Of a DNA stretch of 20,422 nt, positions 2,361 through 17,198 are shown piece by piece. Numbering within the stretch: the stretch's first letter is position 1; each line of letters opens with the position of its first letter. Both the position numbers and the translations under genes were made by a program. Below the pieces are notes generated by a model. The model was not told where the DNA came from and ran no database searches. It saw only the letters and a list, made by a program, of their open reading frames with translations. Origin of the DNA: an uncultured Candidatus Saccharibacteria bacterium (lineage in GTDB: Bacteria; Patescibacteriota; Andersenbacteria; UBA10190; CAIZMI01); NCBI GenBank assembly GCA_964396115.1, contig CAYNDL010000016.1:1-20422 (forward strand), read 5' to 3'.

Positions 2361-2431
2361 GTCGGGTTCTTTCGATAACGCATATTGAGCTTACCCAACC
2401 CGTATCCTCTTGTTTAAAGGAATCGAGACTC

Positions 2432-3175
2432 ATGCCTCCGACCGACCCCAACCAGAATCCCCAGAACCCCACGCCGGACCCCAACAATACCCAGGTTCCG
2501 AACAACACGCAGGTGCCGCCGGCCGGCCCGGCCCCCGTCGTCACGCAGACGACGACCGTCCAGAGCGACCCGTCGCAGACCCCACCGAATCCGGCCACTA
2601 CGACCACGACTGATCCGGCGCCCGCCGCTGGGGCGACGGCCACTGCTCCCGCTACCGCTCGTCGTACGAGCGGATGGCTCGGCAAGGCCGTGATGGTCTT
2701 GCTGCTGCTCCTGGTTGTCGCTCTCCTCGGTATCAGCGTGGCCTTCATGCAGGACATGTACGCGCGGCGCAACGCGGCTTCCCAGTCGCAACAGCAACAA
2801 GCGAGCGAGTCGATGATCGTCCCGGCCTCCGGCGCGAAGATCGCGATGGGGAAGGAAACCTACCAACGGGCGGCGGCCACGATCCATGATCGCGGTTATG
2901 CCCAAGGCCTCAAGGTTACCGGGATCGAGATGCTGGACCTCAACAAAGCGATCGAGGTCGGCATGGAAGGTGTACGGAAGTACTCCGCCATCGAATCCGG
3001 GGTTCAGCCTCCACCTGATCCGGTGCAGACCCCCGCGAATCCGGCTGCGCCGGCCACCAAGAAGACTTCGGCAACCTTTCCGAGTGCCTTCAAATCAGTG
3101 GTCGGACAGATGGATCCGAACGCCCTCATTCGGGTCAGCGACCTGACCGCCGCAGTCACCAAGGCGGAAAAGTAG
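2432..3175 (+). CDS. Single-pass membrane protein with a Pro/Thr/Asn/Gln-rich N-terminus (NNTQVP x2, poly-Thr) and a globular C-terminal domain; no recognisable family
   Basis: 247-aa ORF. A low-complexity P/T-rich N-terminus precedes one strong TM helix (AVMVLLLLLVVALLGISVAF) and a ~150-aa ordinary-composition C-terminus. A terminator follows it. Confidence 0.6.
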   Translation: MPPTDPNQNPQNPTPDPNNTQVPNNTQVPPAGPAPVVTQTTTVQSDPSQTPPNPATTTTTDPAPAAGATATAPATARRTSGWLGKAVMVLLLLLVVALLGISVAFMQDMYARRNAASQSQQQQASESMIVPASGAKIAMGKETYQRAAATIHDRGYAQGLKVTGIEMLDLNKAIEVGMEGVRKYSAIESGVQPPPDPVQTPANPAAPATKKTSATFPSAFKSVVGQMDPNALIRVSDLTAAVTKAEK

Positions 3176-3220
3176 CGGCAGGGCTCAGAAGTGTGCGTTT
3201 TTTTGGGTCTAGAACCCAGA

Positions 3221-3249
3221 GACGCGGATGAAAGTCCGCGTCTTTTTTT
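3221..3249 (+). terminator. Rho-independent terminator
   Basis: GACGCGGA(3221-3228) tgaaag TCCGCGTC(3235-3242), followed by T7 at 3243-3249. Confidence 0.8.
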
Positions 3250-3260
3250 AAAGTTTAATA

Positions 3261-3290
3261 TTGACAGAAACCGGAAAATGGGTACATAAT
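3261..3290 (+). promoter_or_regulatory. Sigma70-like promoter (TTGACA-N18-CATAAT) for the 3345..3935 gene
   Basis: TTGACA at 3261-3266 and TACATAAT at 3283-3290. A GAGGAG Shine-Dalgarno at 3333-3338 sits 7 nt before the ATG at 3345. Confidence 0.45.
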
Positions 3291-3344
3291 CTACGTTCTG
3301 CTGTTTTTGCCAGATTGTCATGTCCTTTCCCAGAGGAGCGGTTT

Positions 3345-3935
3345 ATGTTCCGGATTTGGATGGTTGTGAGTGCTTTATTGGTGGTCGCTTCCCCTGCAAT
3401 GGGGCAGCGGTACTACCGGTCAGGCTGTGCGTCCTGTGTCGCGGTCCCCGGCCAACAGGCGGTTTGCACGAACCCGGCGGTGTGCGGAGTGCCGATGGCG
3501 ACGGCCGTCGTTCAGCCGGCACAGCCCGTGCAACCGGCAGCGACGACGGCGCCGAGTACCCTCGCGTGCCCGAAGGAAGTCGCACCTGCGGTCTCTACGG
3601 CGCCTGCGGTAGTGGCTTCTACGCCCGCCGTTACTCCACCGGCAAACTCAACGCCGGCGGCAAAGTCGTCGAAGAGCGATGCGGACGCGATCCCCTCGAT
3701 CAACCCTCTTTTGAACAAGCCGGCTAAGCAGGAACCTCCTGCGGATAAGCCGGCGGCAGCCGAACCGGCTCAGGGGCCCCCGGAGGAATTCGTGCCGAAG
3801 TCCATGGTGGAAGCCGGCCTGAAGGCGGCCTTCCAGAAGGGCATCGCCGCGGAGAAGAAGAAGTACAAGATCCTCTCGAAGAACGAGGTCGACTCGCTGA
3901 TCGAGAAGATCGTCGACGAGATGGACAAGGAATAG
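3345..3935 (+). CDS. Secreted protein: signal peptide, Cys-containing N-terminal motif, long Ala/Pro/Thr/Val-rich linker, charged amphipathic C-terminus
   Basis: The start is placed at ATG 3345 (MFRIWMVVSALLVVASPAMG...) on the basis of the promoter and SD. The six-frame ORF runs in from 3261, but that extension would cover the promoter itself. There are 4 Cys in CASCVAVPGQQAVCTNPAVC, then PA/TA repeats, then KKKYKILSKNEVDSLIEKIVDEMDKE. Confidence 0.55.
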   Translation: MFRIWMVVSALLVVASPAMGQRYYRSGCASCVAVPGQQAVCTNPAVCGVPMATAVVQPAQPVQPAATTAPSTLACPKEVAPAVSTAPAVVASTPAVTPPANSTPAAKSSKSDADAIPSINPLLNKPAKQEPPADKPAAAEPAQGPPEEFVPKSMVEAGLKAAFQKGIAAEKKKYKILSKNEVDSLIEKIVDEMDKE

Positions 3936-3976
3936 CATCTCGAAGTCCTGACCCGAGAAATCAAGGGAGTGAGGCA

Positions 3977-4001
3977 GACGGGAATAAATCCCGTCTTTTT
4001 T
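3977..4001 (+). terminator. Rho-independent terminator of the 3345..3935 gene
   Basis: GACGGGA(3977-3983) ataaa TCCCGTC(3989-3995), followed by T6. Confidence 0.75.
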
Positions 4002-4006
4002 GTATG

Positions 4007-4032
4007 AAAAAACCGGCACGCATGCGTGCCGG
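4007..4032 (-). terminator. Rho-independent terminator of the 4056..4664 gene (20-nt perfect palindrome plus U-run on the minus strand)
   Basis: CCGGCACGCATGCGTGCCGG at 4013-4032 is a perfect palindrome. It is preceded by A6 on the plus strand, which is U6 after the hairpin on the minus strand. It lies 24 nt past the minus-strand stop. Confidence 0.7.
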
Positions 4033-4055
4033 TGATCGATCTTGGTTCGAGGCGA

Positions 4056-4664
4056 CTATTCCTCGAATTTCCGGTAGTACTGGAACGTCCCTGTGGCATT
4101 CTCGGGAGCAGCCGGTTGCTGGATGATGTACGTCGGCTGGTTGATTGTGACGTTGACCGGTCGGTCGTCTTCATGAGGCGAAGCGCCGGAGCCCCAGTAG
4201 TACCATGGCCGGGATGGAACGCTGTGAGGAGGCCGGAGAAGGGGAGGTGTCCAACCACCCCAGTAGTTGCCATAGTCACCGGTGTAGTAACTCCAGAACG
4301 GAGCACCGCGATACCAGGGGAAGTACGTTCCTCCCCCAGGAACCCAACCGCCCCAACTGCTGCCGTAATTGCCGGTGTAGTGACTCCACATGGGAGCGCC
4401 CACCCTGTAGGGGACGTAGGTGCCGCCGCGCGAAACAGGTGTGCCGCCGAGGAACGACGGGGTGTGGTGAGGTACAGCTCTCACTGGACTCCCGATGTGG
4501 GTTACACCACTCGGTTTGAAGGAGGGCGCATGCGGGACACTTGGAGGACAGAAGCCGCGAGTCGGTGGATTGAACCTGACCGAGGGCGGGTGTCCAACGG
4601 GTGGTCCCGCGAACAGCGGAACCGCCATTCCAGATGCCAAGATGGTAAGAATGAACAATCGCAC
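4056..4664 (-). CDS. Secreted Gly/Tyr/Trp/Pro-rich protein with two tandem ~31-aa aromatic-glycine repeats; GTG start
   Basis: 202 aa with a signal peptide (MRLFILTILASGMAVPLFA). The repeats are GGTYVPYRVGAPMWSHYTGNYGSSWGGWVPG and GGTYFPWYRGAPFWSYYTGDYGNYWGGWTPP. A GAGGAG SD sits 8 nt before GTG at 4662-4664. A terminator follows it. The antisense ORF 4026..4709 is a GC-shadow. Confidence 0.55.
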   Translation of the reverse strand: MRLFILTILASGMAVPLFAGPPVGHPPSVRFNPPTRGFCPPSVPHAPSFKPSGVTHIGSPVRAVPHHTPSFLGGTPVSRGGTYVPYRVGAPMWSHYTGNYGSSWGGWVPGGGTYFPWYRGAPFWSYYTGDYGNYWGGWTPPLLRPPHSVPSRPWYYWGSGASPHEDDRPVNVTINQPTYIIQQPAAPENATGTFQYYRKFEE

Positions 4665-4740
4665 GGGTATTCTCCTCTGAAAAAGCGCCGGTACATCAGG
4701 AACAGGTAACGGCTATTTATACCACGTTTTATACTTTATT

Positions 4741-5146: not shown

Positions 5147-5227
5147 GGGCACGTGGCGGAACGGTATACGCGCATGGCTTAGGACCATGTGACGCAAGTC
5201 GTGTGGGTTCGATTCCCACCGTGCCCA
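5147..5227 (+). tRNA. tRNA-Leu (anticodon UAG), type II with long variable arm; CCA not encoded
   Basis: Manual fold. Acceptor GGGCACG/CGTGCCC is perfect. The D-stem is 3 bp with G18G19 in the loop. Anticodon stem CATGG/CCATG is perfect, and loop CTTAGGA gives U33 and anticodon TAG. The variable arm is 13 nt. T-arm is GTGGG TTCGATT CCCAC, and the discriminator is A. Confidence 0.85.
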
Positions 5228-14028: not shown

Positions 14029-14049
14029 AAATTTAAAAAGTAAAAAACA

Positions 14050-14077
14050 GGAGACACGACTGTCTCCCGTTTTTTTA
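14050..14077 (+). terminator. Rho-independent terminator
   Basis: GGAGACA(14050-14056) cgac TGTCTCC(14061-14067) cg, then T7. Confidence 0.8.
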
Positions 14078-16372
14078 ATGGACGATCATTTCATTACCTT
14101 TATTGATTTAAGCATTAACACGAGTCTGTCGGCGGTCTGCTCTTAAATTAAAAACTAACGTATTACCAGTATGGCAATAAAAACCAATAGTGAAGTGTGA
14201 ATGATCAACAGAAAGTATTGTATGAGGATGAAGTCTGGGATGATCGATCTGTGCCAACAAATTGAAGCAGTATTCCATGACAGGCGATTACACGGTTTTA
14301 GTTGAACCCATTGCTCGCCAGCCAACTTCTTTAAAGGAGAAATGTATATTTGTTATTGATACTTAATTTGTTCTAATGATTTTCGCTTCAAAAATAATTA
14401 GAAAATTCTTTTAGGTTTATATCAAACAGTTAACTCAAATCAATCACGTACTCGTCATACATCCTAAATATAAAAATAATTGACTAAGCTTATTTAAAAA
14501 TGAATAAAGTTGCTAATAATCTAAACAGAAAAAAGATTGGCCGTTAAAAAAAATAAAGGCACACGAAGATTGAATAAACCCGTAACCATTTGGTGCAATC
14601 AAAGCAAAACTCTTAACAGTAAAATCATAATTTAATAAAATATTTAGCTCTTAAAAATACTAAAAAATGTCATCGGTTGAAGACAATGAAAATGAAACGC
14701 ATAAAATATGAATGCATAAATAATATGGTCGCATTCAATATTAGTGCTCTAAGATAGCACGCGAATAATTTGTATATATTTTATTGTGCTGCATTGTAAC
14801 TCATCACATAAAAATTAATCGAAAGCTCAAGAAGTAAGAAAAAATGGATTTCAATACTAGTTCAAAATGAATCACATAATCGATAACAAAATTAAAAAAT
14901 AAAATAATAATCAGCAAAAATAGTTATACAAAATTATTTGTACAATTAATTTACAAAATGAGTTAAATAAAGCGATATGCAAATAGCGAACAAATTCTTA
15001 TTCAAAAATATTTATATCAGCAAAAAAACCTTTTTAAAAAAAGCGTGTTTAGTTTTCCGGTGGGGAAGGGTAGTAGCAAAAAAAACATTAACGATATTCA
15101 CATAAAAATTATTGAATTTTAAAAAACAATTGTTTTTCTTAACACTCATAGACTTTAAAAAAGTAATAATAAAGTAGGTGTACAACAAAAGTAGTCAAGC
15201 TGAACATTATTTGTGTACAGCCAAAATTGCTATCAAATACTTACGCTATGCCGAAAACAAACAGAGGTTTACTGATGCAAAAAGTATCAATGTCGCAAAT
15301 ATTATTGCGACAAATATTTTAAAGGTTGAAATACACGATCATTAATCTCATAAAATTTACAAAAAACTTATTATTATTCTTCGCTGACTTTTGTTTCACT
15401 TGCAAAGTATTTTGGGTTTATTATTTTCGTTCTGCTTGTAGCAAAATAAATCCAAGACCTAGGAATAATTTTCAAATGAGATAATTTATGGTTACTGAAT
15501 ATTAATATTTAAGTTAACTTGTAATGCGAGTTGTATATGCGTCATAAAATGACTAAGTGTGTTGTGTATGCGTAAATTGTTAAAGAAGCATGAGTTAGTT
15601 TTGTCCTCGAAAAAATCTTTATGTGAATCGATGACTAAAGTTTTGCTTGTACTCTGTCCTTAATTAAGATGTGGTGGACATAGCGGGGAGGAGTATTGGC
15701 AGTAAAAATCACGATGATACCGTGGCGTGTTTAATAAGTGACAGTCTTTTTATGGGATGTGGAAAAGTTGCAATATAGCTAACAAAATATTGTTAAATTT
15801 AGTCTATAATTTTTTAGATCTAGGCTTGGTATATTGCCCTATAAGGGCTTTTTTAAATAATTTTTGTCCAAAGATATTGACGGGAGGCAAAAGTTCTGCT
15901 ATTATTAGTTATGTAGTAAGTTAGTTCGTTAGAAATTTAATATCCGATTGGTCGAAGGTTCCTCAAAAAAATCGGAGTCACCGTTCGACCACTAATCTCC
16001 CCCTATTAGTGGTCGTACGGTGTCTCTGACCAAATGAGTGTGCACGCACTCGCTATAAAAACAAACACAAACAACCTCGAAAAGATTGCACCATTGATCT
16101 TTGGAGGAACTAAGCGGTTAGAAAAAGAGTTTTTGGGAGATTAATCTTTTTCTCTACCAGAAGATCGGAGTCACTAACTTGCTCTGCGTGCAGAAGAGTA
16201 AGTGCATCGCTCCACGCGTCTAGAAGTCATGGCCTCCATGCACTTTTGTACGGAATAAATTCTGTTCAAAAGCGCATGGATGCCGTGCTGATTCGTGGGG
16301 CTAAGCCCCACTAGGCATATAACATTTTTTATGGCCAATCATGTGGGGCTTTTCCTTTATTAACAAACATTT
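14078..16372. other. ~2.3-kb extremely AT-rich tract, A-rich on the plus strand, with no ORF of 60 aa or more on either strand (non-coding or degraded DNA)
   Basis: The six-frame track has no ORF between 14146 and 16373. By eye GC is under ~30%, against low-to-mid 40s in the flanking genes. Runs of A dominate the plus strand. It is bounded by a terminator (14050-14077) and the next gene start (16373). Confidence 0.6.
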
Positions 16373-16738
16373 ATGTCACTCGAAAAAGAATTTGTAGAGC
16401 AGCAAAAAGAAACTTTATTACAAGAAAAGAAAAAAATTGAAGAAGAACTAAAAACATTTACAGCAAAGGATTCTAAACTTGCTGGTGATTATGATGCAAA
16501 ATTTCCTGACTACGGACGAAGTGAATCGGAGAACGCCCAAGAGGAAGAAGAGTATTACTCCCGCGTGGGTAGGGAAGGTTTGCTTGAAACACAATTAGTC
16601 AAAGTTAACTCTGCCTTGAAAAACATTGAAGCCGGTAAATATGGTCTTTGCGAAAAATGCGGTTCAGAAATTGAAAAAGAACGTTTACAAGCAGAACCTG
16701 CTGCCGTAACTTGTCTTGAACACAAGTCTAATCGGTAA
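16373..16738 (+). CDS. TraR/DksA-family zinc-finger protein (variant Cx2C-x17-Cx2H finger)
   Basis: 121 aa. An acidic coiled-coil N-terminus is followed by the C-terminal GKYGLCEKCGSEIEKERLQAEPAAVTCLEH, which is DksA/TraR-like. The 4th ligand is His rather than Cys. Confidence 0.7.
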   Translation: MSLEKEFVEQQKETLLQEKKKIEEELKTFTAKDSKLAGDYDAKFPDYGRSESENAQEEEEYYSRVGREGLLETQLVKVNSALKNIEAGKYGLCEKCGSEIEKERLQAEPAAVTCLEHKSNR

Positions 16739-16760: not shown

Positions 16761-17198
16761 ATGGTCAGACAAAAAACATTCATTGTTGTGATTGCAGCCG
16801 CTGTGGTTGCGTTTGATTTATTTGTAAAATCTCTTGCGGCGGAAAAATTACCTGGCAGTCTTCATGTTGGTTTTGTCGGGTACTATTTTAATGAAAGAGG
16901 CTTGTTTGGGCTTGCACCATTACCTGTGACAATTTTTATTTCTTTAGGTCTCCTGGTTGTTTTTTCTTGGCTGTTTTTGAACACGAAGTCCTTTGCGGAA
17001 AAGACAGCAGTGACATTGATCGTGGCTGGAGGTCTTAGTAATTTTATCGAAAGAATAACCAAGGGAGGTACGACAGATATTTTTATCGTAGGGAAACTCG
17101 GTGCTTTTAACGTCGCAGATGTTGTTATCGTTATTGGGATAATGCTGGTTACAATTAGACAACTTCGGGTTACAAGAACGAAACGACCAAGCGTTTAA
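16761..17198 (+). CDS. lspA: Lipoprotein signal peptidase (signal peptidase II)
   Basis: 145 aa with 4 TM segments. Conserved LspA blocks are present (...GGLSNFIERITKGGTTDIFIVGKLGAFNVADVVIVIG...), with the catalytic Asp in FNVAD. Confidence 0.8.
   Translation: MVRQKTFIVVIAAAVVAFDLFVKSLAAEKLPGSLHVGFVGYYFNERGLFGLAPLPVTIFISLGLLVVFSWLFLNTKSFAEKTAVTLIVAGGLSNFIERITKGGTTDIFIVGKLGAFNVADVVIVIGIMLVTIRQLRVTRTKRPSV

Follow-up and report, generated by a model that had tools for sequence, protein, structure and literature searches.

Large structured RNAs of bacteria such as OLE, ROOL, GOLLD and raiA, as well as the T-box leaders, have each opened structural and mechanistic lines of work. The bacteria of the Candidate Phyla Radiation (CPR) have genomes of about 1 Mb and few known regulators, and full-text searches on CPR/Patescibacteria returned no described lineage-specific structured RNA. 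Here, we analyze a stretch of 20,422 nucleotides (nt) from an uncultured Candidatus Saccharibacteria bacterium (contig CAYNDL010000016.1 of assembly GCA_964396115.1; hereafter, the window), in which an initial annotation had proposed that a hairpin-dense block at 15940-16330, at the 3' end of an AT-rich desert, is a structured non-coding RNA (ncRNA), either standing alone or forming a long regulatory leader. Conservation, compensatory changes and the lack of an Rfam match all favour a real structured RNA, and we consider it almost certain that the block belongs to an RNA of a new family with a predicted transcript, an RNA gene predicted as securely as comparative data permit. The family is new within known kinds, being either a structured leader or a large ncRNA. 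The block is real, but its borders had been drawn too narrowly, as the unit runs from a promoter beginning at 15877, through a transcript starting at ~15912, to a terminator ending at ~16358:

15877-16358, + strand: whole predicted transcription unit, made of promoter, RNA of ~445 nt and intrinsic terminator
15877-15905, + strand: promoter, with -35 box TTGACG (15877-82), a 17-nt spacer and extended -10 element TGC-TATTAT (15897-15905)
15912-16358, + strand: predicted transcript of the new RNA family, ~445 nt, both ends predicted
16303-16358, + strand: intrinsic terminator, AAGCCCCAC (16303-11) pairing with GUGGGGCUU (16343-51), then UUUUCCUUU

Like this element, attenuation leaders of the riboswitch, T-box and protein-dependent types lie downstream of a promoter and ahead of an operon's first gene, with which they are co-oriented; they end in an intrinsic terminator close to the start codon, contain conserved mutually exclusive helices and stay linked to the same downstream genes. 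Unlike them, the element exceeds typical leaders in length by a factor of two to four, matches no Rfam leader or riboswitch, T-box included, and yielded no consistently conserved antiterminator. OLE, ROOL, GOLLD and raiA resemble it in their length of hundreds of nucleotides, their many covarying helices, a covarying kissing interaction, a narrow phylogenetic range and discovery by comparative analysis. In contrast to these RNAs, with which it has no homology of sequence or structure (Rfam was negative), the element is strictly tied to one operon, and its ~445 nt fall short of the sizes of OLE, ROOL and GOLLD. Such a density of covariation, together with a covarying long-range loop-loop contact and alternative folds, is rare among large bacterial RNAs.

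The gene order in the window is ClpB, S15, PNPase, a protein of 560 amino acids (aa), the AT-rich desert of ~1.8 kb, the element, a traR/dksA-like gene (hereafter, traR), lspA, Transgly_assoc and comM. Its PNPase relatives assign the organism to the Patescibacteria (CPR). We found 19 distinct homologues of the element, 17 of them full or nearly full length, in related Patescibacteria metagenome-assembled genomes (MAGs) and metagenomes, with pairwise identities of 47-93% and genome GC contents of about 41-62%. Profile nhmmer matched them over the whole 15912-16358 span (E values from 1e-13 to 1e-137), and each locus carries one copy. The three closest PNPase loci (PNPase identity 76, 65 and 59%) each have a full-length element between the 560-aa gene and traR, and a metagenome pattern scan for the hairpin loop and the J4/5 word described below retrieved six loci, all six of them full-length homologues. 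A traR-like protein profile collected 1439 CPR homologues, and the element is found with every close traR homologue that has enough upstream DNA, including two distant ones at 44-45% TraR identity; a further 77 loci, retrieved by way of their PNPase genes from CPR bacteria, Firmicutes and a few other groups, gave no profile nhmmer match, and 26 of these carry a traR homologue. In nucleotide sequence the element is better conserved than either traR or PNPase, with identities to four relatives of 81/79/68/64%, compared with 66/67/57/61% for traR and 72/71/65/64% for the 3' end of PNPase. The initial annotation had asked whether the block is conserved where the desert is not, and this is what we observe: the block is kept in 19 homologues, and the desert shows no nucleotide conservation in relatives, in which the same gap holds unrelated open reading frames (ORFs).

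The base composition and folding energy of the block also set it apart. Its GC content is 0.45, compared with 0.29 for the desert and 0.47 for the whole window. On the + strand, 15940-16372 folds at -163.6 kcal/mol versus -107.6 +/- 6.7 kcal/mol for dinucleotide shuffles (z = -8.35, with 0/100 shuffles as stable), and the z score of the - strand is -5.85; therefore, the density of structure is far above chance and the + strand is favoured.

The signals that delimit the unit are equally conserved. The predicted promoter is near-consensus for sigma-70 and the best promoter-like site in a scan of the region (10/12 matches, plus TG); its -10 hexamer TATTAT (15900-05) is directly preceded by TGC, and transcription is predicted to start at about 15911-15913. 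TTGAC(G/T)-17-TAnnnT occurs at the same position in 16/16 homologues with upstream DNA, 15 of these 16 with TGC ahead of the -10, and the promoter is kept whether genome GC is 41% or 62%. The terminator, which encloses an inner hairpin (GGC 16314-16 / GCC 16334-36), ends 15 nt ahead of the traR ATG. In the 19-sequence alignment its stem has nine pairs, 94% paired and five of them doubly changed, as with GCCGAGG/CCUCGGC in L089, and native stems reach -17.6 kcal/mol versus -11.9 kcal/mol for cross-sequence pairs. The U-run and the CC after it are conserved, the CC being present in most members. RNAalifold additionally pairs GGAG (16167-16170, in J4/5) with UUCC (16352-16355) past the U-run, and the changes there are one-sided only. 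A separate terminator-like hairpin, GCCCTATAAGGGC followed by TTTTTT at 15836-15854, lies ~20 nt upstream of the -35 box; it probably closes the preceding region, and may insulate the RNA promoter from desert transcription.

Our curated structure, scored on a 19-sequence MAFFT alignment, consists of hairpins H1 to H6, the terminator and a loop-loop contact. Its parts upstream of the terminator are:

15972-16029, + strand: H1, long hairpin with 25-nt arms (21 pairs, 97.8% paired, 7 doubly changed)
15997-16004, + strand: C-rich apical loop of H1, CUCCCCCU
16036-16051, + strand: H2, short hairpin with 4/4 stem pairs doubly changed and loop UGCACG (16041-46)
16052-16074, + strand: A/C-rich linker GCUAUAAAAACAAACACAAACAA, predicted single-stranded
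16075-16112, + strand: central conserved region, with probable H3 and the conserved words UUGnnCnnUUGAnC and UUGGAGGA
16116-16158, + strand: H4, hairpin closed by GGU(G/A)...(C/U)ACC
16160-16175, + strand: J4/5, conserved GAAGAUCGGAGUCAC(U), second copy of a direct repeat
16177-16203, + strand: H5, hairpin with 4/8 stem pairs doubly changed and loop CGUGCA (16187-92)
16209-16301, + strand: H6, irregular 93-nt hairpin whose base pairs GCUCCACG (16209-16) with CGUGGGGC (16294-16301)

In this structure 93.4% of the alignment cells are paired, versus 77.0% in shuffles, and 38-45% in controls with slid positions. Double changes affect 58 of the 95 pairs, versus 35.4 in shuffles, and the covariation score of 0.454, versus 0.164 for shuffles, was reached by 0/500 of them. 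RNAalifold predicted 118 pairs from 10 sequences, 60 with compensatory changes, and 78 pairs from all 19, 48 with such changes. The stems thus carry the abundant compensatory changes that the initial annotation had proposed to look for. The best-supported helix is H6 (35 pairs, 97-98% paired, 30 doubly changed), which has a conserved bulge, nAGU, at 16224-27. Because invariant and frequent G-U pairs occur, among them a U-G at alignment columns 364/424 that is unchanged in 19/19 sequences, the + strand is fixed as the sense strand of the RNA.

Other parts of the element are conserved in different ways. The H1 loop with its closing pairs, ACUAAUYUCCCCCUAUUAGU (15991-16010), is nearly invariant, and the loop itself varies at one C/U position only in the 17/17 sequences that cover it. 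The linker after H2 is unpaired in the minimum free energy (MFE) and consensus folds, and its A/C-rich character is common to all lineages. The sequence of the central region 16075-16112 is conserved, and no pairing is firmly supported there: the probable H3 (CCUC 16075-78 with GAGG 16104-07) is 83% paired, shows little covariation and is absent from the L008 group. H4 has interiors that are unrelated between lineages; 13 of 13 distinct sequences each fold by themselves into a hairpin with the closing stem, and five of the five inner pairs are doubly changed. Two helices suggested by the folding programs were rejected. A closing helix of P1 type from the MFE fold (CCGAUU 15944-49 / GAUCGG 16163-68) is no better in native pairs (-10.5) than in shuffled ones (-9.5), and a central RNAalifold helix, UUGAUCUU/AAGAUCGG, is broken in L007, L094, L100 and L008 and clashes with the covarying GGUG/CACC stem of H4.

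Sequence reading and a repeat search located every stem of the initial annotation, and its direct repeat, where it had placed them, although two of its pairings had to be corrected. Perfect over 11 bp, the stem 15986-96/16005-15 forms the top of H1, whose arms (15972-96/16005-29) are 88% complementary. The 12/13-bp stem CCATGCAC.../...GCGCATGG lies within H6 as the core of 29-nt arms (16228-56/16259-87), and H4 corresponds to the GAAAAAGA/TCTTTTTC stem, where the inverted repeat AGAAAAAGA (16120-28) / TCTTTTTCT (16145-53) is present. GTGGGGC/GCCCCAC does exist at 16295-16311, but it is not the best-conserved pairing, as each half mainly pairs elsewhere: GTGGGGC with GCUCCACG, closing the 93-nt hairpin H6, and GCCCCAC with GTGGGGC 16343-49 in the terminator. 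The inverted repeat GGTCGAA...TTCGACC (TGGTCGAA 15949-56 / TTCGACCA 15984-91) and the direct repeat (AAAATCGGAGTCAC 15968-81 / AAGATCGGAGTCAC 16161-74) are likewise present, and both concern alternative helices considered below.

Beyond the hairpins, we identified a tertiary contact in which the loop of H2, UGCACG (16041-46), complements that of H5, CGUGCA (16187-92), over 6 bp; in L008, L105 and L107 the two loops have become AGUGGC:GCCACU, with 5/6 loop pairs changed on both sides. The loop-loop duplex has a native energy of -10.5 kcal/mol in both groups, versus -3.1 and -4.5 kcal/mol for cross-group combinations. The palindrome GUGCAC is found in both loops of the main group, and the sequence would fit an intramolecular or an intermolecular contact equally. 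A further candidate, a pseudoknot between the loops of H1 and H4 (UAAUCUCCC 15993-16001 / GGGAGAUUA 16135-43), has perfect 9-nt complementarity in the main subgroup only and was not retained in the consensus; this complementarity may be a lineage-specific pseudoknot.

In addition, two conserved alternative helices compete with H1:

15950-15960, + strand: 5' segment of alternative helix alpha, GGUCGAAGGUU, complementary to the H1 5' strand (15979-15990)
16163-75 : 16019-31, + strand: alternative helix beta, J4/5 with the lower part of the H1 3' strand

Alpha and beta account for the direct repeat and for one inverted repeat of the initial annotation, GGTCGAA...TTCGACC being alpha itself, whose 5' segment mimics the H1 3' strand. 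The alpha duplex is found in 15/17 sequences, with shifted registers in divergent lineages, and has a native mean energy of -15.3 kcal/mol versus -8.1 +/- 4.0 kcal/mol for shuffled 5' segments. Beta has 11 pairs, 96.8% paired and three of them doubly changed (CG->UA, UA->GU, GC->AU). The lower stem of H1 also has compensatory changes, and H1 and beta are each compensated alone at some columns. H1-forced folds are equal to or near the MFE, and beta-forced folds lie 3-21 kcal/mol above it in most sequences; in L007, beta is itself the MFE fold, within 0.1 kcal/mol of the H1-forced one. Taken together, alpha and beta versus H1 look like either a conserved two-state fold or a conserved intermediate of co-transcriptional folding.

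The genes that follow the element provide the setting for its possible function:

16373-16738, + strand: traR/dksA-like zinc-finger gene, 121 aa (Pfam PF01258, E = 2e-8)
16761-17198, + strand: lspA, signal peptidase II, second gene downstream, 145 aa (Pfam PF01252, E = 1e-15)

The element is directly upstream of traR and co-oriented with it in 19/19 loci, and in all 19 it would lie between the predicted promoter and a traR gene that has no separate promoter. The traR start is 15 nt past the U-tract in the window and 13-43 nt past the terminator in homologues (82 nt in L008). Wherever an element locus reaches far enough, the gene after traR is an LspA homologue or a Peptidase_A8 gene, except in L102, in which a 160-aa gene with no recorded Pfam match is found downstream of traR. 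A gap of 13-43 nt leaves no room for a promoter of its own, and therefore traR-lspA would be transcribed through the element, the terminator acting as an attenuator, regulated or not.

Our preferred reading, to which we give a probability of roughly 45%, is that the element is a large cis-acting sensor or attenuator that also releases a stable RNA of ~445 nt. Every traR-lspA mRNA would carry the RNA as its 5' leader; most transcription would end at the terminator, yielding the stable ~445-nt RNA, and traR-lspA would be made only by read-through. The large folded domain would then work in cis as a sensor or attenuator: H1 on the one hand and alpha plus beta on the other would be two folds that answer a signal and set the level of read-through. 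A small molecule or another RNA could provide this signal, as could a protein, and the RNA-polymerase-binding TraR/DksA-like product is one possibility. The conservation of alpha and beta, and the closeness in energy of both folds in some members, speak for a cis role, as does another CPR lineage in which a promoter, a structured RNA and a terminator, apparently unrelated in sequence, stand ahead of traR.

Several points weigh against an attenuator. A length of 445 nt together with a tertiary contact is much larger than known riboswitch and attenuator leaders. Alpha and beta lie 130-300 nt upstream of the terminator, and we found no conserved pairing that would lead from the 5' switch to it. 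The most obvious candidate for an antiterminator, GUGGGGC 16295-16301 with GCCCCAC 16305-11, is weakly co-conserved (-9.3 kcal/mol native versus -7.3 kcal/mol for cross pairs) and negligible in 5/19 sequences; for these reasons we rejected it, and a classical antiterminator is not established. The same GUGGGGC is strongly co-conserved with GCUCCACG in the H6 base (native -11.5 versus cross pairs -5.3). An abundant trans-acting RNA would just as typically have a near-consensus promoter, a strong terminator and an invariant loop, and the transcript ends and the read-through are predictions. Moreover, the order of genes is maintained across the entire neighbourhood (ClpB-S15-PNPase ... ComM), and therefore linkage to traR could partly reflect general synteny.

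Some of these features raise the prospect of a stand-alone RNA, made in abundance between a promoter and a terminator of its own, that acts in trans as a regulatory small RNA (sRNA), a protein sponge or a scaffold. As in an sRNA gene, the predicted transcript has its own promoter and terminator, no conserved ORF and covariation. The CUCCCCCU loop might be its working end, pairing with G-rich sequences similar to Shine-Dalgarno (SD) regions or binding a protein, and traR-lspA would be expressed by leaky read-through. RsaE/RoxS and RNAIII of Staphylococcus aureus, the latter of ~500 nt with many hairpins, are sRNAs whose C-rich loops pair with SD regions. The element shares with them a C-run in an apical loop, its own promoter and a Rho-independent terminator; unlike them, it has one C-rich loop, no homology to either and no identified target, and neither its tertiary contact nor its alternative folds characterise those sRNAs. 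A near-consensus promoter and strong terminator conserved in all members, an almost invariant loop on top of a covarying H1 stem, the A/C-rich single-stranded linker and the lack of a robust conserved antiterminator all fit a trans-acting RNA, and some genes of the window have G-rich SD sequences, such as AAAGGGGG before the Transgly_assoc gene. However, this match to SD sequences is generic and we identified no target. In 19/19 loci the element stands immediately ahead of traR, co-oriented and with a gap of 13-43 nt, which is the typical cis pattern, and conserved mutually exclusive helices would be superfluous for a simple base-pairing sRNA. On account of the promoter, the terminator, the missing antiterminator and the unusual size, we tentatively regard a trans-acting RNA, and within it the proposed role of the C-rich loop, as nearly as likely as an attenuator.

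A partly overlapping but improbable explanation is an ornate large RNA, whether a ribozyme or one that self-assembles as OLE, ROOL and GOLLD do, in which the H2-H5 pairing would be an intermolecular bridge. In OLE, ROOL and GOLLD, kissing loops first found by covariation proved to be such bridges (PMC12286853). The size of the element, its many covarying helices and its covarying loop-loop contact are compatible with this idea, and the palindrome GUGCAC in both main-group loops would allow symmetric dimer contacts. Nevertheless, the loops of the L008 group are non-palindromic and fit an intramolecular contact equally, no match of sequence or structure to the OLE, ROOL and GOLLD families was found, and we recognised no conserved motif resembling a catalytic core.

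It is far less probable that the element is a divergent housekeeping RNA (RNase P RNA, tmRNA, SRP or 6S RNA), a T-box or a known riboswitch missed by the Rfam models. RNase P RNA and tmRNA are alike in their size of ~350-450 nt, strong expression signals and long-range helices, and an element of ~400 nt with a strong promoter and long-range helices is compatible with either. CPR RNAs can be atypical. The cmscan search that the initial annotation had recommended covered the 4227 covariance models of Rfam 15, among them RNase P A/B, tmRNA, 6S, SRP, T-box, riboswitches, OLE, ROOL, GOLLD, raiA and HEARO. At gathering thresholds tRNA-Leu (5147-5227) alone passes in the whole window, and at E<=10 with relaxed filters no family matches inside 15877-16358; nor do eight homologous loci of differing GC share a sub-threshold family. 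No Rfam 15 cis-regulatory family matches upstream of traR/dksA-lspA, and literature searches returned neither such an element nor a description of such an RNA. ARAGORN finds tRNA-Leu alone in the window and no tmRNA, and the element has no conserved tag ORF or tRNA-like end. For RNase P RNA, neither RF00010 nor RF00011 matches at E<=10, and the P4 core (GGAAAGUCC... / ACAGAAnnCGGCUUA) is absent according to the earlier motif search; J4/5 CCAGAAGAUCGGAGUCAC resembles the P4 3' strand superficially only. The absence of RNase P, tmRNA and SRP motifs reported initially thus agrees with the negative Rfam and ARAGORN scans. A T-box leader has a stem I with a specifier loop, the conserved T-box sequence in the bulge of an antiterminator and an aminoacyl-tRNA-related gene downstream. 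There is likewise no T-box match (RF00230), the downstream genes are traR/dksA-like and lspA, and 5/19 sequences do not keep the antiterminator-like pairing. 6S RNA is a single extended helix of ~180 nt whose large central bubble mimics an open promoter. The initial suggestion of a 6S-like RNA was not borne out: RF00013 does not match, and the consensus, six separate hairpins and a terminator joined by one loop-loop contact, is a multi-hairpin architecture and not one rod. In sum, serial hairpins with a single kissing contact that lack a tRNA-like end, a P4-type core and a tag ORF do not describe a housekeeping RNA.

Finally, it is extremely unlikely that the palindromes arose by chance, or that we are dealing with an element acting at the DNA level (repeats bound by proteins, an origin or the end of a mobile element) or a small protein gene, given that, although AT-rich surroundings could suggest foreign or regulatory DNA and a 54-aa ORF occupies 16174-16338 on the - strand, substitutions are compensatory in pairs and not codon-like, G-U pairs fix the + strand, the element is single-copy at each locus, and a mobile or phage origin was rejected after no match appeared in phage, plasmid or viral-contig collections. 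On neither strand does an ORF of at least 30 codons stay in place from lineage to lineage. A leader peptide or small ORF was set aside in the same way, as the 36-aa + strand ORF of the window is not kept in L007 according to the alignment. Minus-strand ORFs of 47-55 aa over H1-H4 (columns 110-286 of alignment A4) occur in many homologues (L006, L092, L090, L089, L098, L088, L086, L091 and L007) and are absent from the window, L087, L094, L100 and L008; minus-strand ORFs shift place or vanish in several lineages, and we judge this one to be non-coding. In the GC-rich locus L105, a 108-aa gene has been called across the element (1716-2042; the same in L106, 1359-1685), a call that is most likely spurious and due to the missing ncRNA annotation.

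The element is well defined, with a promoter, an RNA of ~445 nt, a terminator and a seed alignment of 19 members, and is directly open to synthesis, probing and imaging. If it is a leader, an unusually large RNA would control a polymerase-binding factor of the DksA/TraR type together with a lipoprotein signal peptidase; if it is trans-acting or ornate, a new family would join a very small set. A bolder proposal, which we regard as rather unlikely, is that it represents a new class of large, bistable RNAs with tertiary structure confined to one lineage of ultra-small CPR bacteria, either a new kind of attenuator that reads the state of RNA polymerase or that of TraR/DksA, the secondary-channel factor of the adjacent downstream gene, or a new ornate or catalytic RNA. 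An attenuator of that class would entail autogenous control by an RNA fold switch, and in an ornate RNA the kissing loops would mediate higher-order assembly. In practical terms, the alignment can serve as an Rfam seed and can correct spurious protein calls over the element in GC-rich MAGs.

Other loci with a traR homologue also offer points of comparison. In Yanofskybacteria-type loci, the gap of 300-600 nt before the traR homologue consists of an array of GGTGACA/TGTCACC boxes with a DnaA-box-like TTATCCACA, a sigma-70-like promoter overlapping the boxes and then a hairpin-plus-terminator unit of ~120-170 nt, in which the terminator loop again encloses an inner hairpin. By profile nhmmer these units are apparently unrelated in sequence to the RNA of the window, and none is in Rfam at gathering thresholds. 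Their positions are:

L035 13449-13958; L027 13195-13755; L026 13653-14046; L021 13628-14132: Yanofskybacteria-type units
L024 7063-7485; L030 3637-3942; L043 13956-14446; L028 13689-14018: other units of this type

This analogy hints that RNA-level control of traR may be recurrent among CPR bacteria. In L095 (2180-2977) and L102 (1414-1782), CsrA-domain (PF02599) genes lie two genes past traR-lspA; the window has no such gene.

The desert upstream of the element (14100-15900) has a GC content of 0.24-0.32, whereas the corresponding gap has ordinary GC in GC-rich relatives. It contains no ORF longer than 65 codons with code 11, or 80 with code 4. It could be a decayed or foreign insert; a decayed gene was rejected as an explanation, given the lack of a long ORF, of similarity to the genes in the gap of relatives and of nucleotide conservation. 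Right after the 560-aa gene, at 14042-14075, stands a strong terminator-like hairpin, GGAGACAcgacTGTCTCC, flanked by A-runs and T-runs, that would read as a terminator in either direction. Elsewhere, GC rises to 0.56-0.68 at 2400-4700, in a window of 0.47, with long ORFs overlapping on both strands, of which 2432-3175 (+), 3261-3935 (+) and 4056-4664 (-, with YYTGxYG repeats) are plausible and would encode low-complexity proteins rich in Pro, Ala and Thr.

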